This document shows, piece after piece, positions 44,309 to 60,137 of a stretch of DNA of 64,000 nucleotides. The stretch lies in IMG/VR virus record IMGVR_UViG_3300044614_000614, positions 1 through 64,000 of that record, one strand, 5' to 3'. Below the pieces are notes generated by a model. That model worked only from the letters and a program-made list of their open reading frames with translations, ran no database searches and was not told the origin of the DNA. Position numbers and translations under genes: made by a program. Source of the stretch: an uncultured virus (IMG/VR IMGVR_UViG_3300044614_000614). Its lineage: Duplodnaviria > Heunggongvirae > Uroviricota > Caudoviricetes. Numbering within the stretch: the first letter of the stretch is position 1; every line of letters starts with the position of its first letter.

Positions 44309-44339
44309 TTACTTCTCCTAATATTCATCTATATTTAGA

Positions 44340-44429: not shown

Positions 44430-44714
44430 TTATTCACAAATAACCTTAATCTTTCTTACATAACGATCCCTATATGGATCCCAAATACGAACGCGCTTCT
44501 CATAGCAATATGGTTCAGGATCAACGTAGATATACTGACGCTCTACGACACGCTCACGATGGCGATGACCACCAATCGCTTCACCAATGATAAGTCCGCC
44601 TAATGCACCACCAAGAACACCGATAATAACTTCTTCTGAGTTATCTGCATTTGCTACTGGAATGGTTGCTGCAATCATAGCAATTGAAAGAACGGCTGCA
44701 ATTAAAGTCTTCAT
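44430..44714 (-). CDS. secreted glycine-zipper protein
   Basis: Signal peptide; GVLGGALGGLIIG. Confidence 0.65.
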   Translation of the reverse strand: MKTLIAAVLSIAMIAATIPVANADNSEEVIIGVLGGALGGLIIGEAIGGHRHRERVVERQYIYVDPEPYCYEKRVRIWDPYRDRYVRKIKVICE

Positions 44715-44726
44715 TTGTTTATTCCT

Positions 44727-45176: not shown

Positions 45177-45674
45177 TTATCCTACCTTCGCTTGCGGTAA
45201 ATGTTGAATTGCATCTTTGAAACGGTCAGCACAGTATGATGCTGCCCAAGCATTTGGCTTCACTAACGGTACCACATTACACATACCACGAATGTAACCA
45301 ACAGCTTCATTTATAACACAAGATGATCCGTGTTTCAAGTCAGGATTAATGTCCAGATGAATTTCAAAGTCACGATCACCAATAGCTTCTTCAAGATCCA
45401 GATAAAGCTGTGCAGTCTTCATTACTTCATTCATGAGACGCATACGTGGTTTGTCTTTCTGCTGGTCATAGTCACGCTCACGTACAACAGAACCAAATAC
45501 CTTACAACCATTTTTACCATTCTTATGAACAACAACAACGTTGATGTAGTCGGCATGCCAAACACCATCAATCTGAAAGCGTTCAGAGTCGCCACCAAGA
45601 TATATCTTTGTTTCGGGAGTTTGTTCAAGAATGAATGCACGAACTTCGTCTAAGTTCATATTTTTTCTGATCAT
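45177..45674 (-). CDS. YkuK-like RNase H-fold protein
   Basis: YLGGDS, EIHLDIN, KP..AAS..AD. Confidence 0.75.
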   Translation of the reverse strand: MIRKNMNLDEVRAFILEQTPETKIYLGGDSERFQIDGVWHADYINVVVVHKNGKNGCKVFGSVVRERDYDQQKDKPRMRLMNEVMKTAQLYLDLEEAIGDRDFEIHLDINPDLKHGSSCVINEAVGYIRGMCNVVPLVKPNAWAASYCADRFKDAIQHLPQAKVG

Positions 45675-45691
45675 TGTTAAGTTCCTATATT

Positions 45692-45773
45692 TGGTGCGAG
45701 TAGAGGGACTTGAACCCCCACGCCGAAGCACTAGTTCCTAAGACTAGCGTGTCTGCCATTTCACCATACTCGC
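45692..45773 (-). tRNA. tRNA-Leu(TAG)
   Basis: Cloverleaf, CCA. Confidence 0.92.
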
Positions 45774-45778
45774 ATTAA

Positions 45779-45853
45779 TGGTGCTTCTTCAAGGAATCGA
45801 ACCTTGTCATGTCGGTGTGTAAAACCGATGCCTTCCCATTTGGCGAAAGAAGC
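45779..45853 (-). tRNA. tRNA-Val(TAC)
   Basis: Cloverleaf, CCA. Confidence 0.9.
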
Positions 45854-45859
45854 TTAAAC

Positions 45860-45963
45860 TGGTGACCCGTTAGCAGCCGAACATATTGACCCGTTGGATA
45901 GAGTAATATGTGTCACTTACCCAGCCCCCATACGGTGAGCCGACTTCTATACCGCTACGGGTC
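45860..45963 (-). ncRNA. CCA-ended non-tRNA structured RNA
   Basis: GACCCGT/ACGGGTC + ACCA, extended stem, no cloverleaf. Confidence 0.6.
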
Positions 45964-46191
45964 AAGAGCGGTTTCTAAATTACATTCCAGCAGTTAGAGA
46001 TGTGATTGTTTCATTTGCCCACAGCCAAAATGCTGTACCAGCAGCGATGACTGCGCTAATACCCTTCTTTACGTCCCAGCCATTCTTCCATGTCTCCCAG
46101 ATAACCCAAGCGACAACTGCGACAAGAAGCAAAACTACGATTGTATTAAGCATATTATTACCTCATTCAGACCTTGATTGGTCATTGTTAT

Positions 46192-46668
46192 TTAGATATT
46201 ACACCATGCATTAACAAAATCAGTAAGTTCTTTCCATTGAGCTTCATCAAACATGAGCATATTTTTCTCACGATTCCATTTTTTGGTTATCGGCTTATTG
46301 CCATACTTAGCGACCATTGAGTAGACACGTGGTAAGATCACAAAAATGAATGTATGATCTTCATGTCGTTTCGACTCGACCTTTTCATATGGTATGCCAG
46401 CAATATATGCTCTAGCTAGATGCGTTGCTCTTGCTTCAAAACGAACAACCGTTTTACGGTGATGTTCTAAATTCCATCTTCTAGAATGGAGTTTTTGAAG
46501 CTCAGGGTGGTTCTTGTGCATTTCAGATTCCCAAACAGAAACAGATGGTGATAACTGATGCTTCTGTTTGTACCACTTAATTTGCTTAGTGAACTTTTGT
46601 TCTTCCTTGCGAATGATAGCAGGCTCAAGTGCAAGGTGTTTTGACTTAATCTTTAGTTCTACGCTCAT
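46192..46668 (-). CDS. conserved phage hypothetical protein behind an amber uORF
   Basis: LKIKSKHLA..HRKTVVR..RATHLARAY. Confidence 0.75.
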   Translation of the reverse strand: MSVELKIKSKHLALEPAIIRKEEQKFTKQIKWYKQKHQLSPSVSVWESEMHKNHPELQKLHSRRWNLEHHRKTVVRFEARATHLARAYIAGIPYEKVESKRHEDHTFIFVILPRVYSMVAKYGNKPITKKWNREKNMLMFDEAQWKELTDFVNAWCNI

Positions 46669-46672
46669 TTGA

Positions 46673-46715
46673 TTTTTCCTTTGTTAGAGTTATTGTAGTG
46701 CATCTAACAAGAAAA
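46673..46715 (-). promoter_or_regulatory. RBS-sequestering hairpin, overlapping TTGACT-N17-TACAAT
   Basis: TTTTCTTGTTAGA / TCTAACAAAGGAAAA. Confidence 0.55.
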
Positions 46716-46716
46716 G

Positions 46717-46758
46717 TCAAGGTGGCTTTTGTTTAACCTAGAAGAAGTGTTCCTTCAT
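46717..46758 (-). CDS. uORF MKEHFF(amber)VKQKPP*
   Basis: AGGAG RBS; ATG AAG GAA CAC TTC TTC TAG GTT AAA CAA AAG CCA CCT TGA. Confidence 0.6.
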
Positions 46759-46777
46759 TGTGTTACTCCTTTGTAAA

Positions 46778-46851
46778 TGGTGACGCTAGTAGGACTCAAA
46801 CCCACATTAGCCGTTTTAGAGACGGTTGCATAATCACTCTGCCATAGCGTC
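46778..46851 (-). tRNA. amber suppressor tRNA (CTA)
   Basis: Cloverleaf, loop CT-CTA-AA, CCA. Confidence 0.85.
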
Positions 46852-46858
46852 ATAAATT

Positions 46859-46932
46859 TGGAGCGGGTAGAGAGAATCGAACTCTCACTTCCACCATGGC
46901 AAGGTGGTTCGCTACCACTACAACATACCCGC
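46859..46932 (-). tRNA. tRNA-Gly(GCC)
   Basis: Cloverleaf, U73, CCA. Confidence 0.93.
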
Positions 46933-46940
46933 ATTTAATA

Positions 46941-47138
46941 AGGTGAGGTGGGACTCGGGTACACCCACAAGACACGGCACAGATACCTGCAATCGCGTCA
47001 GCCTAGATTTCCTTGGTAAGGAACTATACATCTTCGGATCTCTCCGCTCATGCACGGGCACCACACCATCTAGCCAAGTTAGTCAGTCTTTGCATCCGAC
47101 CATTTCCTTGCACTCGGCCAACTCCCGTCGGAGTCAGC
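46941..47138 (-). ncRNA. putative ~200-nt structured ncRNA
   Basis: GC-rich, multiple hairpins, ATAAATA upstream, no credible ORF. Confidence 0.5.
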
Positions 47139-47150
47139 ATTCTATTTATT

Positions 47151-47226
47151 TGGTGCGTCATGGTAGAATCGAACTACCTTTTCCGGCTTATGAGACCAGC
47201 GGGATGCCCATCACCCCCCAAGACGC
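47151..47226 (-). tRNA. tRNA-CAT (Met or Ile2)
   Basis: Cloverleaf, CCA. Confidence 0.82.
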
Positions 47227-47230
47227 AAAA

Positions 47231-47322
47231 TGAATAGCGAGTATTTCTACTCAGGTGTGGTAAGCCCTTCACTCCCCGACTTCAGGAGCCCACTGCCTAG
47301 ATCGATTGCGCTGTGCTATTCA
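47231..47322 (-). ncRNA. putative structured ncRNA
   Basis: Closed by TGAATAGC/GCTATTCA; internal hairpins. Confidence 0.45.
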
Positions 47323-47327
47323 TCTAA

Positions 47328-47403
47328 TGGTGCTGCCTCTCTGAATCGAACAGAGTCCCCACGCTCTTCAGGCGTATGTACGCACCAGCTATACCAAGGC
47401 AGC
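47328..47403 (-). tRNA. tRNA-Phe(GAA)
   Basis: Cloverleaf, CCA. Confidence 0.92.
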
Positions 47404-47604
47404 AGTTATTCTTTAGTCTTCCAGTATTCTGTCTCGTTGTATTCTTTCCACTTGAGACAGAATGCTTTACATAACTCTTTATCATGCTCTAAAAGCATTT
47501 TAGCAAACTCGTTTGGACCGTCTATACCGACAAGACCATGCAGATCATAGATGAAGTCCATTGTGAATTCATCTTCTTTGAAGCCTTCTTCAGGCCAAAA
47601 GAAG

Positions 47605-47754
47605 CTAGTCACGAAGCAACTGAGGAGCTGATTCCGTCAAGTTCTTCTTTTCGTATTCTGCAAGTTTAGCAGAGTATTGTTCGTTTGTCAACCCATGCCA
47701 ACCAATACACTTACCATTTGGGCTACGACCACAACCACATTCTTTATTACTCAT
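47605..47754 (-). CDS. small CDGSH-like Fe-S/Zn-finger protein
   Basis: Manual translation MSNKECGCGRSPNGKCIGWH; AGGAG RBS. Confidence 0.6.
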   Translation of the reverse strand: MSNKECGCGRSPNGKCIGWHGLTNEQYSAKLAEYEKKNLTESAPQLLRD

Positions 47755-47769
47755 TTGCTTCTCCTATTA

Positions 47770-47857
47770 TGGCGGAAGGTGTAGGATTCGAACCCACGGA
47801 ACCTTTCAGTCCTCTCGCTTTCAAGGCGAGTGCAATAGACCACTCTACCAACCTTCC
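47770..47857 (-). tRNA. tRNA-Ser(TGA)
   Basis: Cloverleaf, long variable arm, CCA. Confidence 0.93.
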
Positions 47858-47990
47858 AAATTCGATGCGATTTCTTAAAGTGGTTACGCCCTCCACTATT
47901 GTGTTAACGAGAGTTTCCAGTCAATTACAGTCTACTCACAACCCTCTAGCTCACATATTATATATTCATACATGAGATGTCAAGACAATT

Positions 47991-48362
47991 CTACTTTCTT
48001 AGAATTTGAACTTGAACGACACAGATACCACCACAACCAATCTTTCTTGCTGCGGCTCTTGATAGATCAAGATGTCTGCCCTTTATAAAAGGACCTCTGT
48101 CATTTATTCTAACAATGACTGATCTTCCCTTGTGTGTTACTCTCAGTTTAGTACCAAATGGTAGTGTCTTATGTGCTGCTGTTAATGCATTTGGATTAAA
48201 CTTTTCTCCACTAGCAGTAATCTTACTTCTGCTGCATTCGCCAGGTTTAACACAGTCATACCATGATGCTTTCATGGTGGTCTTCTTTGCTGCCTCTGCC
48301 GTAATTGACAGTGCAAAGGTAGTAAACAAAATCAATATAAAAGCTGTAAATACTTTTTTCAT
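47991..48362 (-). CDS. rlpA: RlpA-like lytic transglycosylase (DPBB)
   Basis: [29 protein letters not shown]. Confidence 0.92.
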
Positions 48363-48524
48363 AACATTTTCCTTATGAATGGAGAGCCTGCTTTTTTGGC
48401 TCAGGTTGAAATGACATTAAGCTGTATTGTATACCTTTCTCTTTCCGATGTTAACAATAGTTCTATTTAGTGTATCAGAATTGAGAGATAATAAATACTT
48501 TTATACTCATTTCAGGATAGAAAC

Positions 48525-49580
48525 ATGATCACACTTAAGCAATTCAGACGAAAGCCAATCAACAACGATCCGCGCGGTACACCAGTTCTCATTCAACATG
48601 GTATGCACTCTCTTGATGTTAAGCCAACACCTGAAGAAATTGCTGAAATCAAAAAGCAGTCACAATCAAAACCGGCTTCACAGAAAAAAAAAGTAAATGA
48701 AGCATACGCGGCACCAGATTGGAATCCTGAATATAACTTCAACAAAGATATGTATAGCGCAGAACCAGGTTTGGGTCATGCGTATCAGTTTGGTATGGCA
48801 AGAGAAATTGCAAGATTACCTGATCTATATGGCGCAAAACGTGAAATCAACGAAAGATTTAAACTTGAAAATCAACATATTTCACCAAACGTGAATCCTG
48901 CGTATCATGGTAGTTTTCATTATGAAGATCAAGAAAAAAACTTACTAAAAGAGTATGGACAGACAAAACAAAGTCTTCATCCTGAGATAGCCAGATATAC
49001 AGAAGACAGTAGTTATCTGAACAGAAATCTTTGGGAGAATTTTTTAAACACCGGCAGTGATTATGAAGATAACAGTCTTGGTGAACACAATCTAAAAAGT
49101 CTAGATGAAGCTCTACAATCTAGACAATTGCCAACAAAGCTTACTGTATTTGCAGGAGTTAAATACAATCCTGGTTTAGAAGCGGCAAAGAACGCTTACA
49201 ATAGACTTTATCATCCAGGTTATACATCATCATCTATTGAGCCTGGCACAGGATTAGAATTTTCTGCTAGAGTAAAAAGAGGTAGAGTAAAAGAAGATAA
49301 TTTTGGTGATGATCCTGGTGATAGACATATTTTGAAAATACATCTACCAGCAGGACATCCAGGTGAGTTTATCGGAACAAGATCACATTTTGATCATGAG
49401 AAAGAGTTCCTCATACCAAGACAGACCACATTTCAAATCATGCCTCATCCAACAATCGTAAGAGCAAACAGAGGCAAATTTGGTCCAAGGTTAGGTATAG
49501 ATCATATTCACTTATGGGACGCTCATCCTGTTCTTAATCCAAATCAATTAGAATTGCCATTTGGAACAAGACGCCGATAA
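48525..49580 (+). CDS. VIP2/Alt-like ADP-ribosyltransferase domain protein
   Basis: YT..LN, YTSSS, EKEFLIPR; ATAAATA upstream. Confidence 0.75.
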   Translation: MITLKQFRRKPINNDPRGTPVLIQHGMHSLDVKPTPEEIAEIKKQSQSKPASQKKKVNEAYAAPDWNPEYNFNKDMYSAEPGLGHAYQFGMAREIARLPDLYGAKREINERFKLENQHISPNVNPAYHGSFHYEDQEKNLLKEYGQTKQSLHPEIARYTEDSSYLNRNLWENFLNTGSDYEDNSLGEHNLKSLDEALQSRQLPTKLTVFAGVKYNPGLEAAKNAYNRLYHPGYTSSSIEPGTGLEFSARVKRGRVKEDNFGDDPGDRHILKIHLPAGHPGEFIGTRSHFDHEKEFLIPRQTTFQIMPHPTIVRANRGKFGPRLGIDHIHLWDAHPVLNPNQLELPFGTRRR

Positions 49581-49888
49581 CCATAATGGGCAATCTGGTA
49601 ATCATAGTGTAGTTCCCAGAAGTTAGCATACAGATCATGTAGATTGCGATCTGTTACACTACTCTTAAAGTTACCGTAGTCGATGTTTAGAATCCTTTGC
49701 TTGACAATATCAGCAAAGGATTCTTTATTAATGAAACAACGAAACTTGTAATCTGTGCCCTGATCCTGCTGAATAGGCACATTCAGAAACTCTAGATGCT
49801 CACGCTTTCTAGCACGAACACGAAGCATACTCTTGTCATTCCAATCTTCAACTGCACTCACAAAACCATCATTAAAACAAATCCACAT
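49544..49888 (-). CDS. conserved hypothetical protein
   Basis: GFVSAV..VRAR..DY.NFK. Confidence 0.65.
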   Translation of the reverse strand: MWICFNDGFVSAVEDWNDKSMLRVRARKREHLEFLNVPIQQDQGTDYKFRCFINKESFADIVKQRILNIDYGNFKSSVTDRNLHDLYANFWELHYDYQIAHYGYRRLVPNGNSN

Positions 49889-49897
49889 TATATAAGG

Positions 49898-50620
49898 TCA
49901 ACCTCCATAAGATTTAATTAAATTGTTCTTTCTCTGCATGAACGTCTTGTGCAAGCTCTGCCAATTCTGTAAGCCAGAGTTCTTGAATAAGCCATGAACG
50001 TGTTCATCATCCATGTTACGTACAGCATCAAGCCCCTTTTGTTCTGCATCAGGGTGGGCGTCAAATACTTTATTAAATACTTTACCTGATTCTTTATTAC
50101 CATCTCTGAATGTTTCTTTTTCTGAGATGTCTGCACTGTAGTCTTTTGGACCACCCTGCGCTCTATAATGAAATGAGCCTCCAGGATCAACATTGTAAAT
50201 CTTGCCAGTCTTTGGGTGAATTTGCATATTACCTTCACCATAATCAAGACCTGTACCAGTGATGTCCCAATTCTTTGTAAGCACAGCAGCATGATACATC
50301 TTACCGACATGTTCTGCTTGCTCAGGTGAAAGCTTGTTGAAGTCTTTATGACCCATTGGCTTCAGACCTTCTTGCCACTTTGTAACAACAGATGGCTTGC
50401 CGTCGATGACTTCGTGCTTAGGATCAAGTGTATTGATACCCATGTGATGATAGATAGCACTCGTTAATGCTTCGACTTTGGCATGTTCGCCGTCTTTGTA
50501 GTGCTTGACATAGAACTGATTGCCCTGTTCGTCAGTGGCTTTACCGCCCTTGTTAGAGCCGCCCTGAGTACCATAATCTACATTGTATGCTTCAGTCATA
50601 AACTGTTTGAATGTTTTCAT
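49898..50620 (-). CDS. HipA/PI3-4-kinase-like protein, putatively head-packaged
   Basis: GGSNKGG, YVK, E, NWD..GN, VDPG; MKTFKQFMTE. Confidence 0.65.
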   Translation of the reverse strand: MKTFKQFMTEAYNVDYGTQGGSNKGGKATDEQGNQFYVKHYKDGEHAKVEALTSAIYHHMGINTLDPKHEVIDGKPSVVTKWQEGLKPMGHKDFNKLSPEQAEHVGKMYHAAVLTKNWDITGTGLDYGEGNMQIHPKTGKIYNVDPGGSFHYRAQGGPKDYSADISEKETFRDGNKESGKVFNKVFDAHPDAEQKGLDAVRNMDDEHVHGLFKNSGLQNWQSLHKTFMQRKNNLIKSYGG

Positions 50621-50650
50621 GTGAAATATCTCCTTTGAGAGTATTTAGTA

Positions 50651-50744
50651 TGGAGCATCTGACAGGATTCGAACCTGTATCGGACATTTCTGTCCACGTC
50701 CAGTTACCTTACTCTCCGTTCGTAGCGGAGGGGGCTACAGATGC
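50651..50744 (-). tRNA. non-canonical tRNA-Arg(ACG) lacking a D-arm
   Basis: Acceptor, anticodon and T arms plus CCA; enlarged variable region. Confidence 0.7.
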
Positions 50745-50991
50745 ATTGATACCATATCTCTTAGCAACAGTACTAACAATGCTACTAAACTTTGAAGGAT
50801 ACAGAATATTGATTTCTGATTGATATGTGATGTTGTCTATTAGAATGTTCTCTATTGCGGCATCAAGTTCTTCTACAGTTGTATCTGACTTGATTAGAAT
50901 TTCATTTGCTAGACCAGAAGAACACTCAACGATACTGATAATCATTTCCTTACTCATTATGACGAAATTATAACACAAAAATGAAAGAATG

Positions 50992-51537
50992 TCAAGACTT
51001 CTGAGGATGACCCATTATGACTTTCTCATGAGAATGTGAGCCAATTTTTCTTCTATATCGTTCTTTATCTACGATACGAACTTTCTTTCCAAGAAGTTTC
51101 TCTGCTTCACTAGATGGAACGACAGGAGTTCCAATTTTTCGCATGATTGCTTCAGGTGCACCAGAGACTTCAGCCCATGATCTTTTCATCTTGTTATCTT
51201 CAGCAGCGGTCTTCATGAAATCGAGTTTGCCACGTTTGGTACCATCTGTACCAACTGCGATTGACTTTCTACCAAGTTGTTTCTTGTAAAGTGTTACCGC
51301 TGAAACTTTACCTTTTCTCACAACAACCTTCATTGCAGAGTTTGAGATATCATTATGTATCGACTTGGATTCATCTTCAGAACCAGATGGTATACCAGAA
51401 TATCCACCGATACCTGAATATGAATTTCTGAGAATGTCATGAATATCGTTTCGATACTGTTCTCTGTACTTCTCGTGTTCTGGATTGAGTCCAATTGAAA
51501 GTACGTGTTCTGTCATGAATTGTGAGAATGAAAGCAT
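50992..51537 (-). CDS. putative head-packaged protein
   Basis: MLSFSQFMTE; ATAAATA upstream. Confidence 0.65.
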   Translation of the reverse strand: MLSFSQFMTEHVLSIGLNPEHEKYREQYRNDIHDILRNSYSGIGGYSGIPSGSEDESKSIHNDISNSAMKVVVRKGKVSAVTLYKKQLGRKSIAVGTDGTKRGKLDFMKTAAEDNKMKRSWAEVSGAPEAIMRKIGTPVVPSSEAEKLLGKKVRIVDKERYRRKIGSHSHEKVIMGHPQKS

Positions 51538-51578
51538 AAGATAAACTCCTTTGATTTATTTATGCTCTTTCAAATGTT

Positions 51579-51653
51579 TGGAGGGGTAAACAGGAATTGA
51601 ACCTGTATTTGCGGATTTGCAGTCCGCTGCATAAGCCATTCTGCCATTACCCC
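51579..51653 (-). tRNA. tRNA-Cys(GCA)
   Basis: Cloverleaf, U73, CCA. Confidence 0.93.
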
Positions 51654-51685
51654 AATTTATAAATATTTATCAGAAAGGAAATTAC

Positions 51686-51952
51686 ATGCTCACATTCATG
51701 CAATTCGTACAGCTTCAAGAAGGTAAACTGAATTACACTAGAGTTAATTTGATAGATCATATCAAATCGAAAGGTTGGATTTCGGCAGGCAATAGCGGTG
51801 GAAATTCACCTCATGAAAAATTTATACATCCTGAATCCAAAATGCATTTATCGATACCAAGAAGCAGAACATTATCACCGGGTGTGATAAGCAGAACGCT
51901 CAAAGATGCTGTGAGACACGAAAAGGATGAAAACTTCAGAAAGGCTGCTTGA
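51686..51952 (+). CDS. hicA: HicA-family RNase with capsid-targeting-like N-terminus
   Basis: GW..G..HEKF.HP..IP..L.PG..LKDA; TATAAATA at 51658. Confidence 0.7.
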   Translation: MLTFMQFVQLQEGKLNYTRVNLIDHIKSKGWISAGNSGGNSPHEKFIHPESKMHLSIPRSRTLSPGVISRTLKDAVRHEKDENFRKAA

Positions 51953-51953
51953 T

Positions 51954-52027
51954 TGGCTGCTCATCATGGATTCGAACCACAATACCCTGAGTCAGAGTCA
52001 GGAGTCCTACCGTTAGACGAATGAGCA
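51954..52027 (-). tRNA. tRNA-Gln(CTG)
   Basis: Cloverleaf, CCA. Confidence 0.93.
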
Positions 52028-52032
52028 ACAAA

Positions 52033-52106
52033 TGGTACTGCCTAGTGGAATCGAACCACCGTATTGCGTTCCACAGACGCACGTTCTACCATTGAACTAA
52101 GACAGC
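52033..52106 (-). tRNA. tRNA-His(GTG), alphaproteobacterial type
   Basis: No encoded G-1; G1:U72, A73. Confidence 0.92.
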
Positions 52107-52115
52107 ATAATAAGT

Positions 52116-52242
52116 TGGAAACGATAGGAATCGAACCTATCAATACTCGCTTTCGCTATACAGTTATCGGCCGATTCCGTATAGTTACTCACTTTCTACA
52201 GCCACTTCCAGCAGCTTGCTGATGCCTTTCGCATTCGTTTCC
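52116..52242 (-). ncRNA. tRNA-like RNA (acceptor stem + T-arm, non-tRNA interior)
   Basis: GGAAACG/CGTTTCC; ATAGG-TTCGATT-CCTAT. Confidence 0.65.
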
Positions 52243-52248
52243 ATAAAT

Positions 52249-52325
52249 TGGTTGCGGGAGTGGGATTCGAACCGCACGATCTGCTGGTTATGAGCCAACC
52301 GAGATGACCGCTTCTCTATCCCGCA
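52249..52325 (-). tRNA. tRNA-Met(CAT), initiator-like
   Basis: GCGGG...CCCGCAACCA acceptor. Confidence 0.85.
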
Positions 52326-52329
52326 ATAT

Positions 52330-52413
52330 TAGCACTGCCAAGGGAATCGAACCCTTTACCTAGGACACTCCCGCTTGAAGGCAGGAAGGTGTATCCAACA
52401 CACTCCAGCAGTA
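52330..52413 (-). ncRNA. tRNA-like RNA with TCA in an irregular anticodon loop
   Basis: T-arm, long D-stem, CTTCAA loop, no CCA. Confidence 0.5.
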
Positions 52414-52419
52414 TCAAAT

Positions 52420-52494
52420 TGGCAGCGCATAAGGGAATTGAACCCTTCTCCCCGGATTGAAAGCCCAGTATTCTGACCACTAAACTAATGCGCC
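52420..52494 (-). tRNA. tRNA-Glu(TTC)
   Basis: Cloverleaf, CCA. Confidence 0.9.
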
Positions 52495-52500
52495 TTGAAT

Positions 52501-52584
52501 TGGAGGACTGGGTGGGACTCGAACCCACGGTGTTTGCATAGCGGATTAAAAGCCCGCGCCGTTCGCCACTACGGTAACCAGTCC
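52501..52584 (-). tRNA. tRNA-Lys(TTT), enlarged variable loop
   Basis: Cloverleaf, CCA. Confidence 0.85.
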
Positions 52585-52636
52585 GTTTGTTGTAGTGCAG
52601 CTACTTCTATGGGCTATATGCTATGCAAGCACGAAT

Positions 52637-52710
52637 TGGCTGGAAGACTAGGGATCGAACCTAGATTCGTGGTTTCAAAGACCACCGTCCTACCGTTAGA
52701 CGATCTTCCA
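52637..52710 (-). tRNA. tRNA-Gln(TTG)
   Basis: Cloverleaf, CCA. Confidence 0.93.
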
Positions 52711-52755
52711 ATAAACTAAATATCCTTGTCAATCACTCACATAATGGAGTATACT

Positions 52756-53040
52756 ATGGATATGTATCTAAGTCAAATCATTTATTTGCCCTTTTCTTGG
52801 GACACAACTGAAACTGTGCCTTGTCGTGGGCAAATTTTAGACATTCATCATTATCAAGCTTTATATTCTTTGCTTGGCACCCGTTGGGGTGGCGATGGGC
52901 AAAGTACATTCGCAATGCCTGACTTGCGCCCGTGGAATGATGTAGGCCCAGACTATGGTCATCGCACTCGTCGTGAGTGGCACGAAGATGAACTTGTACC
53001 ACATATGGCAATGAACGGGCTTTATCCTTCACACGGATAA
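52756..53040 (+). CDS. tail-collar domain protein
   Basis: CRGQIL..YQALYSLLGTRWGGDG..FAMPDLR; CTAAATA upstream. Confidence 0.8.
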   Translation: MDMYLSQIIYLPFSWDTTETVPCRGQILDIHHYQALYSLLGTRWGGDGQSTFAMPDLRPWNDVGPDYGHRTRREWHEDELVPHMAMNGLYPSHG

Positions 53041-53041
53041 T

Positions 53042-53116
53042 TGGTTGGCACAGAAGGTAACGATCCTTCCACCCCTGTCTTATCAGGACAGTGCTCTACC
53101 TCTGAGCTATGCGCCA
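53042..53116 (-). tRNA. tRNA-Ile(GAT)
   Basis: Cloverleaf, CCA. Confidence 0.9.
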
Positions 53117-53123
53117 ATGATTC

Positions 53124-53305
53124 GTTACACCTTACAGGTTTAGCCCTTTCGCGAACAGAGTCAGCAATCCTGTATTCGTAAGCTTTCCCTCATGTTGGGC
53201 TTACTAGGTCTCCCCTGACTTATCTAGAAAGTCGGGTAACTTTTATGTGGCGGCAATATTAACGACCTTTGCTCTTATAATCGGGACGGTCATGCGAGTG
53301 CCACA
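53124..53305 (-). ncRNA. two adjacent putative structured ncRNAs
   Basis: Closing stems GTTAC/GTAAC (53124-53240) and TGTGGC/GCCACA (53246-53305). Confidence 0.4.
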
Positions 53306-53310
53306 AAATT

Positions 53311-53393
53311 TGGTGGGCAGGTGCGGTTACGATCCACTCCCTTAAGGATGGGTTTTACAGACCCACTGCTAGAACCACTAGCTTTACCTACCC
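53311..53393 (-). tRNA. tRNA-Tyr(GTA)
   Basis: Cloverleaf, variable arm, CCA. Confidence 0.85.
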
Positions 53394-53399
53394 GTTATA

Positions 53400-53473
53400 T
53401 GGTGCCGCATGAGAGAATCGAACTCCCATCAGAGGATTACAAAGCCCCTGTACTGCCATTGTACTAATGCGGC
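53400..53473 (-). tRNA. tRNA-Thr(TGT)
   Basis: Cloverleaf, CCA. Confidence 0.9.
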
Positions 53474-53554
53474 GTTATTAAGTGTCGGCCTCACAGTTAT
53501 TCGGCCGACTGTCTGACATTCATGACGGATGTTAATGCGTAGTCAGATCATTGT

Positions 53555-53629
53555 TGGTGGAATGCTAGGGAATCGAACCCTATCGTCCGCCGTGCAAAGG
53601 CGGCATGCTCCCGTTATCATCAGCACCCC
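53555..53629 (-). tRNA. tRNA-Ala(TGC)
   Basis: G3:U70, CCA. Confidence 0.92.
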
Positions 53630-53634
53630 GTTAT

Positions 53635-53708
53635 TGGCACCAGTGCAAGGATTCGAACCCTGACAAGAGGTTTTGGAGACCGCTGTGCTACCGTTACACT
53701 ACACTGAT
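53635..53708 (-). tRNA. tRNA-Trp(CCA)
   Basis: Cloverleaf, G73, CCA. Confidence 0.9.
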
Positions 53709-53831
53709 TAGAATTAGTTGGAGTTTTTTAGAGAGTTCCCCATCCTCTATGCGTGACGATCACTCGTGTTACGGAGCCACATATCACGAATTGGCGAGGG
53801 TTCCTAAAGGAGTATACCCACAACTTATCAA

Positions 53832-53910
53832 TGGTCTGCGAGGAAGGATTCGAACCTTCGATCCCCTGACTCCAAATCAGGTAGGGACGGCCAGACTCCC
53901 CTACACGCAG
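53832..53910 (-). tRNA. tRNA-Pro(TGG)
   Basis: C1:G72, CCA. Confidence 0.92.
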
Positions 53911-53996
53911 TTGAATTGTGAATACCGTATGACTGACAGGATTTGTCTCCCTTTGTTTAGAGTCGTTATCTGCACGGTAATCAAGACAGAACGACT

Positions 53997-54605
53997 TTAG
54001 AATTTTCTACCTTTATTATAACCCAACTCAAGCCAAGAGTCAAGTTTTTCTTTCTTGATTTTTCTATTCTCTATTCCGTTTGTGATCCAACAAGTGCCAT
54101 ATTGCGAAGTTTCTTTGCCTTTCTTTAGGGACATTGCTTCACTGATCTTTTGCTTGTGATCTTCGGAAAGATTTTTGTTTTTCCATGTGTCATATTTCAC
54201 AAGTCCGGCATCATGACGATCTTTCAACATCTTAGATATATGAGGATTCTTACGACCTCTGAGACTTTTGGCAATCTTCTGCCCAATGACTGAATGATCT
54301 TTGCCGAGATTGTTTAGACCTGTTTTGTTGAGATAACCCCAACCGCCTTTACCACCTTCACAAAGATTGTAGTTGATTTCTGTATCAGGAACAACTAAGA
54401 TACTTTCCAACAGATTCATATGATCTTCATCTTTACAGATGTGTAGTATCTCTTTATGAAAGTTATCTACACCATATTTTTTGATGGCATATTTCAGTAG
54501 TTTGCCTGATCCAAGATAATCATCATTCAAATCTTTTGTTTGATGTTTGCCGATATAGAACTTGCCGTTCACAAGATTGGTTGTTTTGTAGATAGTATAG
54601 AACAT
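53997..54605 (-). CDS. Seg-like GIY-YIG homing endonuclease
   Basis: TIYKTTN..FYIGKH..YLGSG; NUMOD3-like SEDHKQKISEA. Confidence 0.88.
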   Translation of the reverse strand: MFYTIYKTTNLVNGKFYIGKHQTKDLNDDYLGSGKLLKYAIKKYGVDNFHKEILHICKDEDHMNLLESILVVPDTEINYNLCEGGKGGWGYLNKTGLNNLGKDHSVIGQKIAKSLRGRKNPHISKMLKDRHDAGLVKYDTWKNKNLSEDHKQKISEAMSLKKGKETSQYGTCWITNGIENRKIKKEKLDSWLELGYNKGRKF

Positions 54606-54612
54606 CAGGAAG

Positions 54613-54656
54613 CCTCAGGATACAATAGGGTTTACGATCTATTTAGTATCCTGAGG
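54613..54656 (-). promoter_or_regulatory. late promoter within an RBS-sequestering hairpin of the seg gene
   Basis: CCTCAGGATAC-TAAATA...GTATCCTGAGG. Confidence 0.7.
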
Positions 54657-54665
54657 ACTTCAATG

Positions 54666-54736
54666 CGACCTATGCGAGACTCAAACTCGCTACACCTCTT
54701 AGACAGAGAGGAGTGATATCCATTCACTAATAGGCC
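54666..54736 (-). tRNA. tRNA-Asp(GTC), CCA not encoded
   Basis: Cloverleaf, G73. Confidence 0.85.
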
Positions 54737-54742
54737 TTGAAT

Positions 54743-54817
54743 TGGAGAACCAGGTGAGAATTGAACTCACGACACGCGGGTTAAGAGGCCGCTACTCTAC
54801 CACTGAGTTACTGGTCC
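54743..54817 (-). tRNA. tRNA-Lys(CTT)
   Basis: Cloverleaf, CCA. Confidence 0.9.
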
Positions 54818-54823
54818 TTGAAT

Positions 54824-54899
54824 TGGCTGGATAGCTTGGATTCGAACCAAGGTCATCCTCGTTAACAGCGAGGCGCTCTACCGCTGGAGCTACTATCCA
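54824..54899 (-). tRNA. tRNA-Asn(GTT)
   Basis: Cloverleaf, CCA. Confidence 0.93.
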
Positions 54900-54901
54900 A
54901 T

Positions 54902-55041
54902 ATTCTACTTTCGTCAGTAGTCACATCATCATATGAGATTCGAACTCATGCCTGCGGATTTCGGCCGCCGTGCTTCCCCTACACCAATGAATGACTTGTC
55001 GCTGGTGGCCACCTGCTAGTGACTACTGACGAAAGTAGAAT
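54902..55041 (-). ncRNA. tRNA-like cloverleaf enclosed by a perfect 23-bp inverted repeat
   Basis: IR 54902-54924 / 55019-55041; D, GAA-loop and T arms inside. Confidence 0.7.
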
Positions 55042-55149
55042 GTGAGGCTGTGCTGAGTCACAGACCCTCACTGGATATTTCGCTACTCAGTGCGCCTTTG
55101 AGAAGAGCAAAGGTACTCATAGGAACTTAACAATGTCAATCAGCAGTAG

Positions 55150-55368
55150 TTACGTGCAAACATGCACGACAAAAAAACCTTTTACACCTTCGCTCTTCAG
55201 CTTGTTTATAAGCTGCTTCTTCGCTTCGGTATACGTGCCACGAATCCAGATTACGTCTTCCATAGACTTTGGATTTCGCGTTTCACTAAAAGCCCAACCG
55301 CCTATACCGCGGGGTTTGCGACCGTGAGCCAGTTCGAAGTCAGTCGTATCGAATTCGATCTTCAGCAT
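55150..55368 (-). CDS. hypothetical early protein
   Basis: HGRKPRGIGGWAF; GAGGAG RBS. Confidence 0.7.
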   Translation of the reverse strand: MLKIEFDTTDFELAHGRKPRGIGGWAFSETRNPKSMEDVIWIRGTYTEAKKQLINKLKSEGVKGFFVVHVCT

Positions 55369-55396
55369 TCAGCTTCTCCTCATCAGTTACAAAAAG

Positions 55397-55425
55397 AATA
55401 TATCACACTGATTCGGTCTTTGCAA
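55397..55425 (-). promoter_or_regulatory. sigma70-type early promoter
   Basis: TTGCAA-N17-TATATT. Confidence 0.65.
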
Positions 55426-55435
55426 GCACTTTTTT

Positions 55436-55471
55436 AAAAGAAAAACCCCGAAACTTTCGCTTCGGGGTTTT
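55436..55471 (-). terminator. intrinsic terminator of putative attenuator
   Basis: AAAACCCCGAAGCGAAAGTTTCGGGGTTTTTCTTTT. Confidence 0.85.
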
Positions 55472-55498
55472 AAAAACTAAGTCTTTACGATGACTTAA

Positions 55499-55579
55499 CT
55501 ACATAGAACCCCTCATCACACCTGCCCATGCTGGCTGGCGTGTCTCTTGATTAATCGTGAATGGGTAATAATGTTTCAT
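55499..55579 (-). CDS. putative attenuator leader peptide MKHYYPFTINQETRQPAWAGVMRGSM
   Basis: Manual translation; lies between promoters and terminator; last codons form the antiterminator arm. Confidence 0.65.
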   Translation of the reverse strand: MKHYYPFTINQETRQPAWAGVMRGSM

Positions 55580-55603
55580 TTTCGTCTTTCTTAAACTGTA
55601 TTC

Positions 55604-55644
55604 TATTTATACAACATCCTAGCAGGATTTTATTAGGTTGTCAA
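55604..55644 (-). promoter_or_regulatory. tandem sigma70-type and T4 late promoters for the leader
   Basis: TTGACA-N17-TAGGAT then TATAAATA (55611-55604). Confidence 0.7.
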
Positions 55645-55652
55645 CTTTTTTT

Positions 55653-55729
55653 TGGTGCGAAAGGTGGGACTCGAACCCACAGAACTCGGTTTTTGAGACC
55701 GATACGTATACCTATTCCGTCACTCTCGC
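55653..55729 (-). tRNA. tRNA-Leu(CAA), short variable loop
   Basis: Cloverleaf, CCA. Confidence 0.88.
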
Positions 55730-55905
55730 CCAGTATTGCCTGATTAGGCCTATGATAACAAGTGTAACAGCACCAATCATCAATGCACTATATGTGATAA
55801 CACCAGTGTTACTCAACAGCATATCTACAATCCACATGAAACCTACCCATGTAACACAGAAACATCCTCTATCAAACCATTCGTTCATTATATATCCTCA
55901 AAGGT

Positions 55906-55997
55906 TGGTCGGCGTGCTTGGATTCGAACCAAGTCAAGAACACTCATCTAGTGCTAAAGGGATTATAAGGCCCTCCCGTGTACCAACACCCACGCCG
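55906..55997 (-). tRNA. atypical tRNA-Ile(TAT) with long variable arm
   Basis: Loop CT-TAT-AA, minimal D-loop, CCA. Confidence 0.7.
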
Positions 55998-56156
55998 TTA
56001 TTTCTCTACGTATCGTTTTGTTTCATGACCACATTTAGAACAATGCAGCTTGCCGTCCCAGTCATCCCACAAAGAGGTTTCTTTATAGTGACCTTTTTCA
56101 CAAGACTTACAGCGTTTGCCGTCCATGTCAATGTGTGTCATCATCAACTCCGCATT

Positions 56157-56232
56157 TGGTGCGCCCGCTCAGATTCGAACTGAGGATCGGACGGTTATGA
56201 GCCGTCAGCATTAACCGCTATGCTACAGGCGC
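56157..56232 (-). tRNA. tRNA-CAT (likely Ile2)
   Basis: Cloverleaf, CCA. Confidence 0.88.
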
Positions 56233-56236
56233 GAAT

Positions 56237-56312
56237 TGGTGCCCCTTGACAGATTCGAACTGTCCCTTGAGCGATTTTAAGTCGCTTGCCTCTACCGCTG
56301 GGCTAAAGGGGC
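56237..56312 (-). tRNA. tRNA-Leu(TAA), short variable loop
   Basis: Cloverleaf, CCA. Confidence 0.88.
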
Positions 56313-56319
56313 GTATTGT

Positions 56320-56586
56320 TTAGTCCTTCATTGCGCCGAACATGAAGCCCTTGCGAGGATCACCCCACTCAGTCTCAGCACGAACACGAACATATCGTGC
56401 GCGAGTGTCGGCTGTATTAGGATTAGGCACAGTAACCCACGGGTTCTTACCCTTTAACCATGCCTTCTGCAAGAGTGTCCACTTATCAATAGCGGAACGT
56501 TCACGCTTGATAGCCTTTGACAGACTACGATTTGCTTCACGTTCACCCTTAGAGGTGTAAGCAGACTTAGACTTCGGTGCAGACAT
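56320..56586 (-). CDS. conserved hypothetical protein
   Basis: YTSKGER..AWLKGKN. Confidence 0.65.
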   Translation of the reverse strand: MSAPKSKSAYTSKGEREANRSLSKAIKRERSAIDKWTLLQKAWLKGKNPWVTVPNPNTADTRARYVRVRAETEWGDPRKGFMFGAMKD

Positions 56587-56608
56587 TTACTTTCTCCATT
56601 ACAAAAAT

Positions 56609-56691
56609 TGGCGACCACTGAGGGATTCGAACCCCCATTTTCAGCTCCAGTTACGTCTAGTCGGGTAGAAGCCGACCTCGGCTAAGTGGCC
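56609..56691 (-). tRNA. non-canonical tRNA-Arg(TCT) lacking a D-arm
   Basis: Same architecture as 50651-50744. Confidence 0.7.
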
Positions 56692-57437
56692 TTTTGAGTA
56701 TTTATTTATACAAATTCGTCAACAGGAAAACCCCTGATATATAGACCATCAAGAAATTTCTGACCTATCATGTGAGCATCATCGCTATTCACGAAGAACT
56801 GTTCCCAGATACAATCGTCATCTTCGAAACAATATAGCATGAACCCTGCGCGGTTGTCAACCATTTCAAAACTTACATCATACGACTTAACCATTGTTTA
56901 CATGCTCACCACAAAAATCATTCTTGTTCTTTTCAATAATCTTAGGATACCGAGTACACTTGCGATAGTTTATATGCCGATCATATTTGGCTTCCATAAG
57001 TTCAACTTCAAAACTAAGCATCATGAAGTCACCGAAGAACTTCTGCCAAAACGTCTTCTGTGACCAGATTTCATCAGCAGTCTTTGGCTTCTCAGCCTTA
57101 GGATATCTCTTGGCCCAGATACAGTTTTCACAACTAGAAGCAATCTTGCTCATGTCATTAACTCTCTCTTTTATGCACACATAATAGCATATCTGTTGCC
57201 ATCGTCAAGAGAATTCTGCATCAAATATGTCATTGATATCAATGAGAGATTTTGTGGTCATAAATCTTGGTGTCCAACCATCAAACGCACCACCCTTGTT
57301 CAGAAATTGAGTGTATTCTGAAGCTTCATCTTCAAAGAAAAACGCTTTGATGATCTGATCCGTATGAGTTTCATATACAAGCCAAGAATAGTCATTGTCA
57401 TCAAGTACAACTTCATAGTTCTTCATGTTTTCTCTCC

Positions 57438-58820
57438 TTAAACCTTGATACCTTTGAATTTGTCTCTCTTGTCGTTCGTCTTGTTAGGCATTTGAATTTG
57501 ACCGCTGTCTGCAATATCATTTTGTGCAGAAGCTTCAGCATCATACAGTTTCATTTTAGGTCTATCTACACCAATGACAAATCTCTTGTTAGTTGTCGGA
57601 TCATTGTATCGGTTCTTCAATTGCTTCACCATGATCTGACCTAAGTCTTCAAGTTGCTCAGTGCTGATCAACGCAAACATGAAATCGGCAGTCGCTGGCA
57701 GACCAAATGATTCCGATGTATCTTCAAGACCAACATCTGAATTTGAGTAGCCGCCTCTTGTAGTTTGTGTAGCAGATATAATTGGAACATCAAACTCGAC
57801 TGCAAGACCTCTTAGTTCTTCTGCAATTGCTTTGATGAACGTATAAGAATTAACATTAGGTCCAGCTTTCATTCTAGCAGAGGAACAAATGTTAAGATAG
57901 TCGATATAGATGATATCAGGTTCGAAGCTCTTCTTCAATCTCAGTTCATTTAGCAGAGTTCTGAAATGCTGAGACGAAGCAGATGCAGTAGGATACTCTT
58001 TGATGATCAACTTACCATTGGTCTTGTTCTTGAGAGATGCAACCTTTCTCTCATACAAATCTTTTGGCATCTTCTCTAGATCGTCAACTGCTGTGTTAAG
58101 AAGATTTGCATCAATACGTTCTGCAATTCTTTCTTCTGCCATTTCCATTGTGATGTACAAAACATTCTTACCAATTGTTAGATTGGCAGCAGCAAAGTGA
58201 CACATAGCAAGAGACTTACCGACACCAGTACCGGCAAGAATGATATTCAAAGTCTTCTTGGGCAAACCACCTTTGGTGATCTTGTTGAAGAACTCAAGAT
58301 CAAACGGAATACGTTCTTCTACTCTATGATAGAAATCATATCGCTTTTCTACATCTTGGAAGAAATCATGACCGATATTTGGGTCAAATGAAACTGAGAG
58401 TGCTTCGGTCAATACATGAGGAATAGATCCTTTACCAAGTGTCTTGTTTTGTCCATTCATGATTTCAATGGATAACATCATTGCTTGATAGATTGCCTTC
58501 TCTTGACAGAACGTCTCTGTCTTATCAATCAGCCATTCTTCAGATGTCTCTTCTTTGGATTCGTCAAAGGAAGTTAAGGCACTCTTACATGCCTTAACTT
58601 CTTCTTCGGTAATCTTAACTAGAGAATTGATTTCAATTTCTAGAGCATCAGCAGTAGGTCGTTTGTTATACTTCAGAATGAAGTCATTGATCTGTTCAAA
58701 AAGAACCTTGTCTTCATTCGAAAAGTACTCACTCTTGAGAAATGGTATTACTTTGCGGCAATAGTTTTCATTCCTCAACAAACTCTTCAATATCGTCTTT
58801 TCCAGACTTAGCTGCGACAT
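57438..58820 (-). CDS. gp41: replicative DNA helicase
   Basis: AGTGVGKS, IDYL, SESFGLPATAD, QLKNRY. Confidence 0.96.
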   Translation of the reverse strand: MSQLSLEKTILKSLLRNENYCRKVIPFLKSEYFSNEDKVLFEQINDFILKYNKRPTADALEIEINSLVKITEEEVKACKSALTSFDESKEETSEEWLIDKTETFCQEKAIYQAMMLSIEIMNGQNKTLGKGSIPHVLTEALSVSFDPNIGHDFFQDVEKRYDFYHRVEERIPFDLEFFNKITKGGLPKKTLNIILAGTGVGKSLAMCHFAAANLTIGKNVLYITMEMAEERIAERIDANLLNTAVDDLEKMPKDLYERKVASLKNKTNGKLIIKEYPTASASSQHFRTLLNELRLKKSFEPDIIYIDYLNICSSARMKAGPNVNSYTFIKAIAEELRGLAVEFDVPIISATQTTRGGYSNSDVGLEDTSESFGLPATADFMFALISTEQLEDLGQIMVKQLKNRYNDPTTNKRFVIGVDRPKMKLYDAEASAQNDIADSGQIQMPNKTNDKRDKFKGIKV

Positions 58821-59091
58821 GCTCAGAAACCTCCAAAATCATATGGTTCAAAATCAATCCTGCAAACTCTTCAAACTTTTTGCTTCGTCTGAGATTAGTC
58901 TCTGTATGATTACCCATATCAAGTAGATCATATGAGAATTGCAGAACCGCACTATCGTTTTCCAGTTCCTTAACTGATACTTGTACGTATCGAAGTATAA
59001 CGCCATTCCAAGGCTCAATCAAGATTTCAATAGGGACTGTATCATAGTCCTTCATATCATCACGGAACTTATAGTCTTGACCAATAATCAT
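58768..59091 (-). CDS. gp40-position conserved protein
   Basis: Synteny between uvsX and gp41. Confidence 0.55.
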
Positions 59092-60137
59092 TCGTCTTCT
59101 CCATCTGCAACATTAGACTTACCATACAAGAATTCATTCTTACATGCTTCATCAATTCGATCAAGAATGTCCTTCGTAAAATACTTCTCAGGATCATTTA
59201 GAATAGCAGATTCAAATGCTTTTGTTCCATCTGGCAATTCATATCGTGTAGATACCTTCTTGATGATGTCAAACTTCTCAGCAAGATCAAGAAGACCATA
59301 ATATGGATCAAGACCATCTGTATAGTCGAGTAGTGTCTCTACTTTCTTATTTTCAATAGTCAGTCGAGCCTTCTTTAGATTTGCGGTGATGATTGCACCA
59401 GTGATCTGATTATCCTTGTCCTTGTCTTTCTTCTTGGACAAGAACAGAATAGTAGATGCAGCATACTCAAGACCAGAACCACCACCCATCTTCTTTGTCG
59501 GCACATATGAACCAACAACATCGTAAACGTGATTGGTCACAATGAGAGGCACCTTAGCCTTACCAAGCTTCAAAGTGAGAACACGGAATGCACCACGCAC
59601 CAACTGAGCACGGGTCATGTCTCGTGTGTCTTTACCATCTGCAATGTCTTGCATTTCTTTATCGGTTGAAAGATTACCAAGTGAGTCGAGAACAAACATC
59701 ATTGGTGGACGATCTTTGCTTGTCTTGTCTTCAATGTACTTGTCGAGGATCTTTACTGCTTGGGTTCTGAACTCTTGGATAGTTGCGACTGGCACAACTG
59801 CAACTCGCTTTGTGTCAATGCCTCTATCTGTAAGCATTTGCTTAGATATAGCAGATTCGGATTCAAAGTAGAAGACGAATCCTGTTTCGTTTTCTCTGAG
59901 GAACTGTCTGACAATGTTGATTGCGTAAAAGGTCTTTCCTGTAGACGGTTCACCAGCGAGTGCTGTGACTTTGTTAGCAGGTAAACCCCCATAGATGCTA
60001 CCAGATAGCAGAGCGTTAAGACTATAGCTGCCAGTGCCAATAAAACCAGTAACATCACCAGCTTCGACTCCTTCATCCGCGATGCCAGCGTATTCATTAT
60101 CAATCTCCTTGAGTAAGGATGTAAACATATTTGACAT
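59088..60137 (-). CDS. uvsX: RecA-like recombinase
   Basis: [21 protein letters not shown]. Confidence 0.95.

Follow-up and report, generated by a model that had tools for sequence, protein, structure and literature searches.

A putative ribosome-dependent attenuator in the tRNA array of a T4-like phage and its relatives

The tRNA array and the leader element

The DNA analysed here, referred to as the window, covers the first 64 kb of a virus record that is 74,456 bases long and has an estimated completeness of 45%. The window belongs to a T4-like phage. Its gp41-type helicase (57438-58820) shares 60-64% identity with the homologues of cyanomyoviruses and of the Methylophilales phage Melnitz. 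ARAGORN identified 28 tRNA genes in the window, all on the minus strand, and the phage carries a near-complete tRNA set. The leader element that is the subject of this work is situated within this array. Four of the tRNA genes are located upstream of it and 24 downstream, close to the roughly 25 that had been predicted (Table 1).

There are a number of other genes and RNAs in the array. A gene for a SegE-like GIY-YIG homing endonuclease (53997-54605, minus strand) lies between tRNA blocks. A manA RNA (RF01745; 46940-47135, minus strand) was found with 58.5 bits, the gathering score being 55.2. A tRNA with a CUA anticodon (46778-46851, minus strand) is likely an amber suppressor. In addition, ARAGORN gives a two-base "anticodon" for one odd tRNA-like gene on the minus strand, and two more weak Rfam tRNA matches on that strand have no ARAGORN call.

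Table 1. Positions of the leader element, its parts and its surroundings in the window
Feature	Position	Strand	Basis
Odd tRNA-like gene and weak Rfam tRNA matches, listed together	52332-52413, 50654-50744, 56612-56691	-	
tRNA-Leu(CAA), nearest upstream tRNA	55653..55729	-	ARAGORN and Rfam, 61.5 bits
Promoter P1, TTGACA-N17-TAGGAT, A-tract before it	55616..55644	-	Consensus scan, 10/12 matches
TATAAATA motif	55604..55611	-	Motif search
Leader ORF, 26 codons plus TAG	55499..55579	-	ORF translation
Region 1 (CCCA), possible partner of region 2	55562..55565	-	Paired in MFE fold
Hairpin P inside the ORF, possible pause hairpin	55517..55542	-	Fold
Region 2 (GGGGTTCT), antiterminator 5' arm, codons just ahead of the stop	55505..55512	-	Sequence and fold
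Antiterminator, region 2 with region 3, enclosing H	55464..55512	-	RNAalifold consensus
Inner hairpin H, 5' arm overlaps the stop codon	55476..55499	-	Fold
Intrinsic terminator, stem 55471-55442 with GAAA loop, U-tract 55441-55436	55436..55471	-	Terminator scan
Promoter-like site P2, TTGCAA-N17-TATATT	55397..55425	-	Consensus scan
72-aa ORF with strong ribosome-binding site, no known family	55150..55368	-	ORF and family search
Conserved non-coding stretch, shared motif and 23-bp stem enclosing a tRNA-like arm	54900..55149	-	Comparison and fold
tRNA-Asn(GTT), first of the downstream tRNA block	54824..54899	-	ARAGORN

The original prediction, made from the letters of the window, was that a promoter, a short ORF, hairpins and a strong terminator form an attenuator that could switch on the tRNA array. 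All of these parts were found on the minus strand where they had been placed. The promoter, P1, matches 10 of the 12 consensus positions and has TG ahead of its -10. Relatives keep the TTGACA -35, together with TAGGAT or TAGAAT or with a -10 overlapping TATAAAT. A second promoter had been claimed at TATAAATA, which we take to be T4 late-promoter-like. The motif is in its place. It is not enriched in the window, where there are 4 matches as against 2.55 expected (28 of 100 shuffles reach 4), and it is replaced by TACTAAATA in 5 of 20 variants of the element. Thus, no conclusion was drawn on a late promoter.

The ORF has the predicted 26 codons and encodes the peptide that had been quoted. It is followed, ahead of the putatively regulated genes, by an intrinsic terminator with 13 pairs, 6 of them G-C, a loop of 4 and a T-rich tail. 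This is the only 13-pair match among nine terminator-like sites in 50000-60000, which agrees with the strong terminator of the prediction. The next strong minus-strand terminator is found only at 43844-43827, past the last tRNA, so read-through transcripts could cover the array.

With a strong promoter and a strong terminator of its own, the element could also be a self-contained small gene, a reading that we regard as unlikely. P1 would then give an abundant RNA of about 150 nt that codes for a micro-protein, works as a small RNA or does both, and the terminator would be an ordinary one. The long hairpin would only stabilise or process the RNA, and the downstream genes would use their own promoters. 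The site P2, directly behind the terminator, would suit such a gene, and a counterpart of P2 is present after the terminator in the relative L099. P2 is one of two downstream promoters in the original prediction, which gave them as a caveat that control may be partial. The other, at 54613-54656, is missing from the list of the scan; the caveat holds for the window. In the window and in L099, which have a promoter-like site behind the terminator, read-through could thus do no more than supplement the transcription of downstream genes. Against the small gene, a simple consensus scan found no promoter-like site after the terminator in the relatives L090, L167 and L189, in which the same scan also misses P1.

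Conservation and competing hairpins

The element was found in 26 viral contigs and in metagenome contigs, with 20 distinct variants, and is thus conserved in related phages. Pattern scans that left both competing arms free gave 25 of the viral contigs, and a looser scan added L193. In the metagenome scan 18 of 19 loci were kept, some of which represent the same assemblies as the viral contigs; L156 was dropped as a chance match. The 20 distinct sequences were aligned from the ORF start to the terminator (alignment A1), with a mean column identity of 77%.

The position of the element is also constant. It lies between tRNA-Leu(CAA) and tRNA-Asn(GTT) in all 19 loci examined. tRNA-Asn(GTT) is the first downstream tRNA in 19 of 19 oriented loci, at a distance of 326-556 nt, and tRNA-Leu(CAA) is the closest upstream tRNA in all 18 loci that have upstream sequence. 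The genes downstream are tRNAs in every relative examined, as the original prediction implies. Among close relatives (L090-L109, compared with the window), the flanking tRNA-Asn(GTT) and tRNA-Leu(CAA) genes are of several unrelated sequence types. It appears, therefore, that the element was retained while its neighbours were exchanged, and this suggests a cassette-like exchange of tRNA genes beside it.

Other collections were searched as well. In cultured phage records the element was unmatched by megablast and blastn except for the tRNA-Leu part, and the elements of three subfamilies described below have no match there either. The element is present in 1 of 80 loci that neighbour the helicase gene (L047). 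Two matches in a scan of genome contigs were rejected as chance because their gaps are at the maximum length of the pattern and they have no profile match. In one metatranscriptome run, with a small word share, a single 151-nt contig from a close relative covers 55427-55577 with four other letters; it is as long as one read, gives neither ends nor strand, may derive from DNA and was given zero weight.

The folds of the RNA were explored in the window and in the relatives. The segment 55430-55610 (181 nt) folds at -50.3 kcal/mol with a z of -5.25, a value that none of 200 shuffles matches. Region 2 (55512-55505) has its complement in region 3 (55471-55464), which forms the foot of the terminator 5' arm. 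In most relatives it is also the same sequence as region 4, the foot of the terminator 3' arm. From this complementarity and identity, regions 2 and 4 would compete for region 3. Region 2 is nearly invariant, though the search pattern left it free. When region 2 pairs with region 3 it encloses hairpin H, of which the stem is kept and the loop is variable in the main family, and the stop codon falls within this antiterminator hairpin. The antiterminator and the terminator are mutually exclusive, and the antiterminator arms are paired in the folds of all 26 distinct cores.

The energies of the two hairpins were compared. The terminator lies between -20 and -22.7 kcal/mol in each of the 20 variants, and over the 26 cores the range widens to -16.5 to -22.7 kcal/mol. 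The predicted pairing of 55512-55505 with 55471-55464 does exist in the window, where it is the weakest of the family at -14.1 to -15.5 kcal/mol; the antiterminator has -14 to -15.5 kcal/mol in the window and about -18 to -26 kcal/mol in relatives. The two global states are no more than 2.6 kcal/mol apart in 12 of the 20 variants.

Alignment A1 gives an RNAalifold consensus that consists of the antiterminator enclosing H and of hairpin P. The antiterminator helix is paired in 96.7% of cells and has two compensated pairs. Hairpin P is paired in 100% of cells and has one (CG in 10, UG in 5 and UA in 4). Together they are paired in 97.4% of cells with three compensated pairs, and slid controls pair at most 57%. 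They contain 12 double-changed cells, as against 4.5 (sd 1.7) in shuffles, and none of 500 shuffles reaches that number. A covarying antiterminator in the tRNA arrays of relatives, for which the original prediction had suggested looking, is thus present. For the terminator, covariation on A1 is not above that of shuffles (89.1% of cells paired, 63 of 500 shuffles as high), with five rows misaligned by one column. Region 1 is predicted to pair with region 2 in most MFE folds. This pairing has three invariant C-G pairs without covariation and a fourth pair in 7 of 19 rows, is 3-13 kcal/mol weaker than the antiterminator and is missing, with region 1 itself, in L193. The attenuator geometry of the trp/his type that had been recognised in the window is therefore real, conserved and backed by covariation.

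A strong structure is also what would be seen in a leader RNA that binds a ligand, a protein or a tRNA (a riboswitch or a T-box-like RNA), with the ORF being incidental. The conserved stretches of the leader, which are kept at all three codon positions, would be consistent with this as well. Such an RNA appears very improbable here. A search of Rfam over 44000-58000 at E up to 1 found no family but tRNAs and manA, located elsewhere than the element, and in 55430-55650 there is no match to a T-box or other cis-regulatory family of Rfam at E up to 1. In addition, all 20 variants keep the ORF open and its indels preserve the frame, and in each subfamily the ORF has its end at a fixed point relative to region 2.

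These subfamilies came from a looser pattern that fixes only three arm motifs. It found 46 viral loci: 25 of the main family, seven chance matches and 14 element-like loci. The last are the main-family variant L193 and 13 loci in four subfamilies (5, 3, 2 and 3 loci). Chance pattern matches were classed by eye and removed before counting (L093, L100, L102, L156, L164, L166, L172, L176, L179, L184 and L188). The profile of the main family matches 11 of the 14 element-like loci (not L183, L191 and L194) and none of 13 chance loci, which include the two from genome contigs.

The four subfamilies keep the core of region 2, H, region 3 and terminator; the promoter, the leader ORF and the inner hairpin are particular to each. 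The sequences of H are unrelated across subfamilies, yet they fold in 26 of 26 distinct cores. The leaders are read as ORFs of about 25-41 codons, taken from the first start codon after the -10. These ORFs are unrelated between subfamilies, are present in 12 of 12 loci examined and have their ends +11 to +15 nt from where region 2 starts. The start codon is about 7 nt after the -10 in two subfamilies, so their mRNA may be leaderless. At the level of structure, the evidence for a trp-type attenuator geometry is good, and this geometry is shared by a family of elements.

The genes around the subfamily elements vary. One subfamily has tRNAs 188-333 nt downstream in 4 of 5 loci. Another has a tRNA-Gln 252 nt downstream in one of its three loci, the other two being cut short. 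In 2 of 3 loci of the third, the element immediately follows a phage tmRNA gene and tRNAs are found about 0.8-0.9 kb downstream, and the fourth has no tRNA within 1.2 kb. One subfamily has no promoter between terminator and tRNAs that could be detected with a simple consensus scan. The phage tmRNA genes directly upstream of the element lie at 706-1089 in L191 and at 1309-1672 in L194.

The leader ORF, the ribosome and known attenuators

All 20 variants keep the leader frame open, and neither of the other two forward frames is open in any of them. Of the reverse frames, two are open in no variant and the third in 3 of the 20. There are two indels within the ORF, each of 3 nt. Outside it, indels of 1-2 nt prevail, and the 5' UTR and the loop of hairpin H contain some that are longer. 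A 1-nt insertion in the window creates a TAG one codon ahead of the TAA of relatives, and the stop position is thus kept. The start, ATGAAA, is invariant in A1 and has an A-rich stretch upstream; by inspection, the ribosome-binding site is weak. The element therefore has a short ORF right after its promoter that is conserved as an ORF. The window's leader is the sole variant that ends in TAG (55499-55501). Read-through of this codon would lengthen the ORF by 31 codons, past the terminator to a TGA.

The peptide is a different matter from the frame. Variation is spread evenly over the codon, with 15, 13 and 12 of 28 columns variable at the first, second and third positions, and since the third shows no excess, the peptide does not appear to be under protein-like selection. 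It has no Pfam or PHROG match. Such a pattern would be expected of a leader in which translation, here predicted, matters more than the peptide, and is unlike that of a small protein kept by purifying selection. The missing third-position excess and the lack of a protein family count against the self-contained small gene. So does the comparison of subfamilies, whose leader peptides differ wholly where the core of competing arms and the stop position are kept.

The original prediction also drew on the codons of the leader. Its counts of 17 amino acids and 21 distinct codons are correct. Twenty-one distinct codons is what chance would give (expected 19.4, sd 1.8; P = 0.28), and codon diversity does not exceed chance. 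Seventeen amino acids is mildly high (P = 0.04) and is reached by 3% of 473 real 26-codon windows. An argument had also been built on Leu, which is absent from the leader and has two tRNA genes upstream. Those two genes are there, and ARAGORN gives a third, Leu(TAG) at 45692-45773, downstream of the element. Because several relatives have Leu codons in their leaders and Leu(TAG) is downstream, the argument fails. An apparent link between Thr or Gly codons of the leaders and Thr or Gly tRNAs in the array is confounded by relatedness.

No run of codons for one sensed amino acid is present in the leaders. Asn codons number at most two, in one subgroup. Since there is no single-codon run, the signal is most likely general ribosome lag, and with it translation capacity, rather than one amino acid. 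An attenuator of the same build could instead sense particular codons, either the invariant AAU (Asn) or the His, Tyr and Asn codons near the start. The tRNAs for these codons sit in the downstream block, so that particular phage tRNAs would be subject to feedback. AAU is unchanged in all 20 variants and the CAA that follows it in 19 of them, at each of the three codon positions, and one subgroup has two consecutive AAU codons. A ribosome stalled at these codons would leave region 2 free, and the first tRNA downstream is tRNA-Asn in 19 of 19 loci. Sensing of this kind seems quite improbable to us. Classical attenuators use codon runs, and here there are merely one or two such codons. Their conservation could reflect a constraint on the RNA, and the leaders of the other subfamilies are unrelated. 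With a near-full set of phage tRNAs, a match between leader codons and tRNAs says little.

The effect of a ribosome was modelled by masking roughly -15 to +13 nt about the A-site codon. The nascent RNA was represented by a transcript ending ahead of region 4. With no ribosome, or with the A site in about the first 17 codons, the probability of the antiterminator in this RNA is 0.70-1.00 in 20 of 20 variants. With the A site in the last 9-10 codons or at the stop, it is 0 in all 20. Counted from where region 2 starts, the stop begins at +11 to +15 nt, a position at which a terminating ribosome would cover the antiterminator 5' arm.

The full RNA behaves differently. At equilibrium the probability of the terminator is at least 0.94 in 19 of 20 variants, and masks on early codons rarely alter it. 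Equilibrium folding with ribosome masks was rejected as a test of the switch; it does not discriminate, the terminator winning nearly regardless. Since the terminator wins at equilibrium, any switch must be kinetic. The upper stem of the terminator stays free to nucleate. The expectation that a ribosome at the stop leads to termination and a lagging one to read-through is thus matched by the nascent-RNA folds of all 20 variants and is not supported by the equilibrium folds, in which the terminator prevails nearly wherever the mask is placed. The terminator being favoured at equilibrium would be in keeping with the self-contained small gene. The design of the element, with two arms that share one sequence, would fit a kinetic race between them.

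Our preferred view, which we hold to be somewhat probable, is that transcription is attenuated here in a ribosome-dependent (leader-peptide) manner, with general ribosome lag as the signal. P1 would transcribe a short RNA that carries the 26-codon ORF. A ribosome that keeps pace with the RNA polymerase would be at the last 9-10 codons or the stop and would cover region 2. The terminator would then form and stop the transcript near 55436. With no ribosome, with a late one or with one stalled in roughly the first 17 codons, region 2 could pair with region 3 before region 4 is made. With the antiterminator formed, the polymerase would continue to the structured RNAs, to tRNA-Asn and to the further downstream tRNA genes. 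That a stall at almost any codon may turn on the tRNA array, as had been proposed, fits the geometry and the lack of codon runs. The trigger could conceivably be starvation or anticodon nucleases.

A broader role can be suggested tentatively, and we consider it rather doubtful. The element may be a codon-agnostic phage sensor of translation capacity that raises transcription of the tRNAs (and of the tmRNA region) only when ribosomes trail the polymerase. Host anticodon nucleases, starvation or a shortage of ribosomes could then act as triggers by slowing decoding. This would provide the phage with an inducible counter-defence and with a feedback loop on tRNA supply. The TAG stop of the window and the phage tRNA with the CUA anticodon could add a second, positive loop.

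The element can be compared with a number of known systems. The trp, his, pheA, leu and thr systems are leader-peptide transcription attenuators of amino-acid operons (PMC1183508; PMC3082878). They share with the phage element a promoter-proximal short ORF followed by a terminator and an overlapping antiterminator. In both, a ribosome at the end of the ORF would mask the antiterminator 5' arm and a lagging ribosome would give read-through. Unlike these attenuators, the phage element has no regulatory codon run, precedes phage tRNAs and structured RNAs instead of biosynthetic enzymes and has a weak, unsupported pairing of segments 1 and 2. Its antiterminator is also predicted to form without translation, so an untranslated phage RNA should read through and not terminate. 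Because the codon run is missing, the element would be a variant that works like a leader-peptide attenuator and is placed outside the class of amino-acid operons.

Attenuators that sense other signals are also similar in part. The pyrBI-type coupling attenuator senses the distance from the polymerase to the leading ribosome and not a specific codon. In pyrBI, a close ribosome blocks the terminator. The phage element would have the opposite sign, as a close ribosome should favour its terminator. T-boxes bind tRNA directly and need no ORF. In T-box leaders the choice between terminator and antiterminator is likewise tied to the status of tRNA, upstream of genes of the translation apparatus, and the phage element differs in having no T-box match in Rfam. 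The mef/mel-type resistance attenuators respond to general ribosome stalling with a short ORF and a terminator/antiterminator pair, according to the part of the source available (PMC4335068). There, the stall is due to a drug-bound ribosome and a resistance protein is encoded downstream; the phage element has no drug link and is in a tRNA array.

The RNA terminated in an attenuator can have functions of its own. In Sinorhizobium, attenuator-derived RNAs and peptides (rnTrpL and peTrpL) can act in trans, as reported in the available portions of two papers (PMC6614838; PMC7968998). The terminated RNA and the peptide of the phage might do likewise, which would also suit the self-contained small gene; unlike in Sinorhizobium, no target or trans function can be proposed for the phage RNA.

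Phage tRNA arrays are now viewed as counter-measures against host defences that cleave tRNA, as far as the available text of two studies goes (PMC10264068; PMC11464382). The available portion of the main text of PMC10264068 does not mention attenuation, terminators, promoters or leaders. In the sources searched, some of them accessible in part, nothing was found on how expression of a phage tRNA array is controlled. In the open-access literature, no paper was found on leader-peptide attenuation in phages or ahead of tRNA genes. As far as this partly accessible literature shows, the element would be the first such attenuator described in a phage and upstream of tRNA genes. If it is an attenuator, it would offer a testable direct link between the state of translation and the supply of tRNA during infection. 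At about 150 nt the core is small, and it can be transferred into reporters.

Sequence between the terminator and the tRNA genes

In the window, P2 is followed by the 72-aa ORF, which is found only in window-like relatives, and by the conserved non-coding stretch. The latter (54900-55149) folds at -87.6 kcal/mol with a z of -3.4. It contains a weak Rfam tRNA match at 54926-54993 and no Rfam family otherwise. L099, L107, L167 and L189 possess different inserts in the same frame of this non-coding module. In L090, L167 and L189, the terminator is followed directly by the shared motif and by long-stem RNAs with tRNA-like inserts, and then by the tRNAs. A second small element is present in relatives at 10-60 nt past the terminator (for example, 3075-3120 in L099), and the window does not have it. 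It consists of a short motif that occurs twice around its own reverse complement, so that by inspection it could form either of two alternative hairpins. It is followed by an A-tract and the next promoter.
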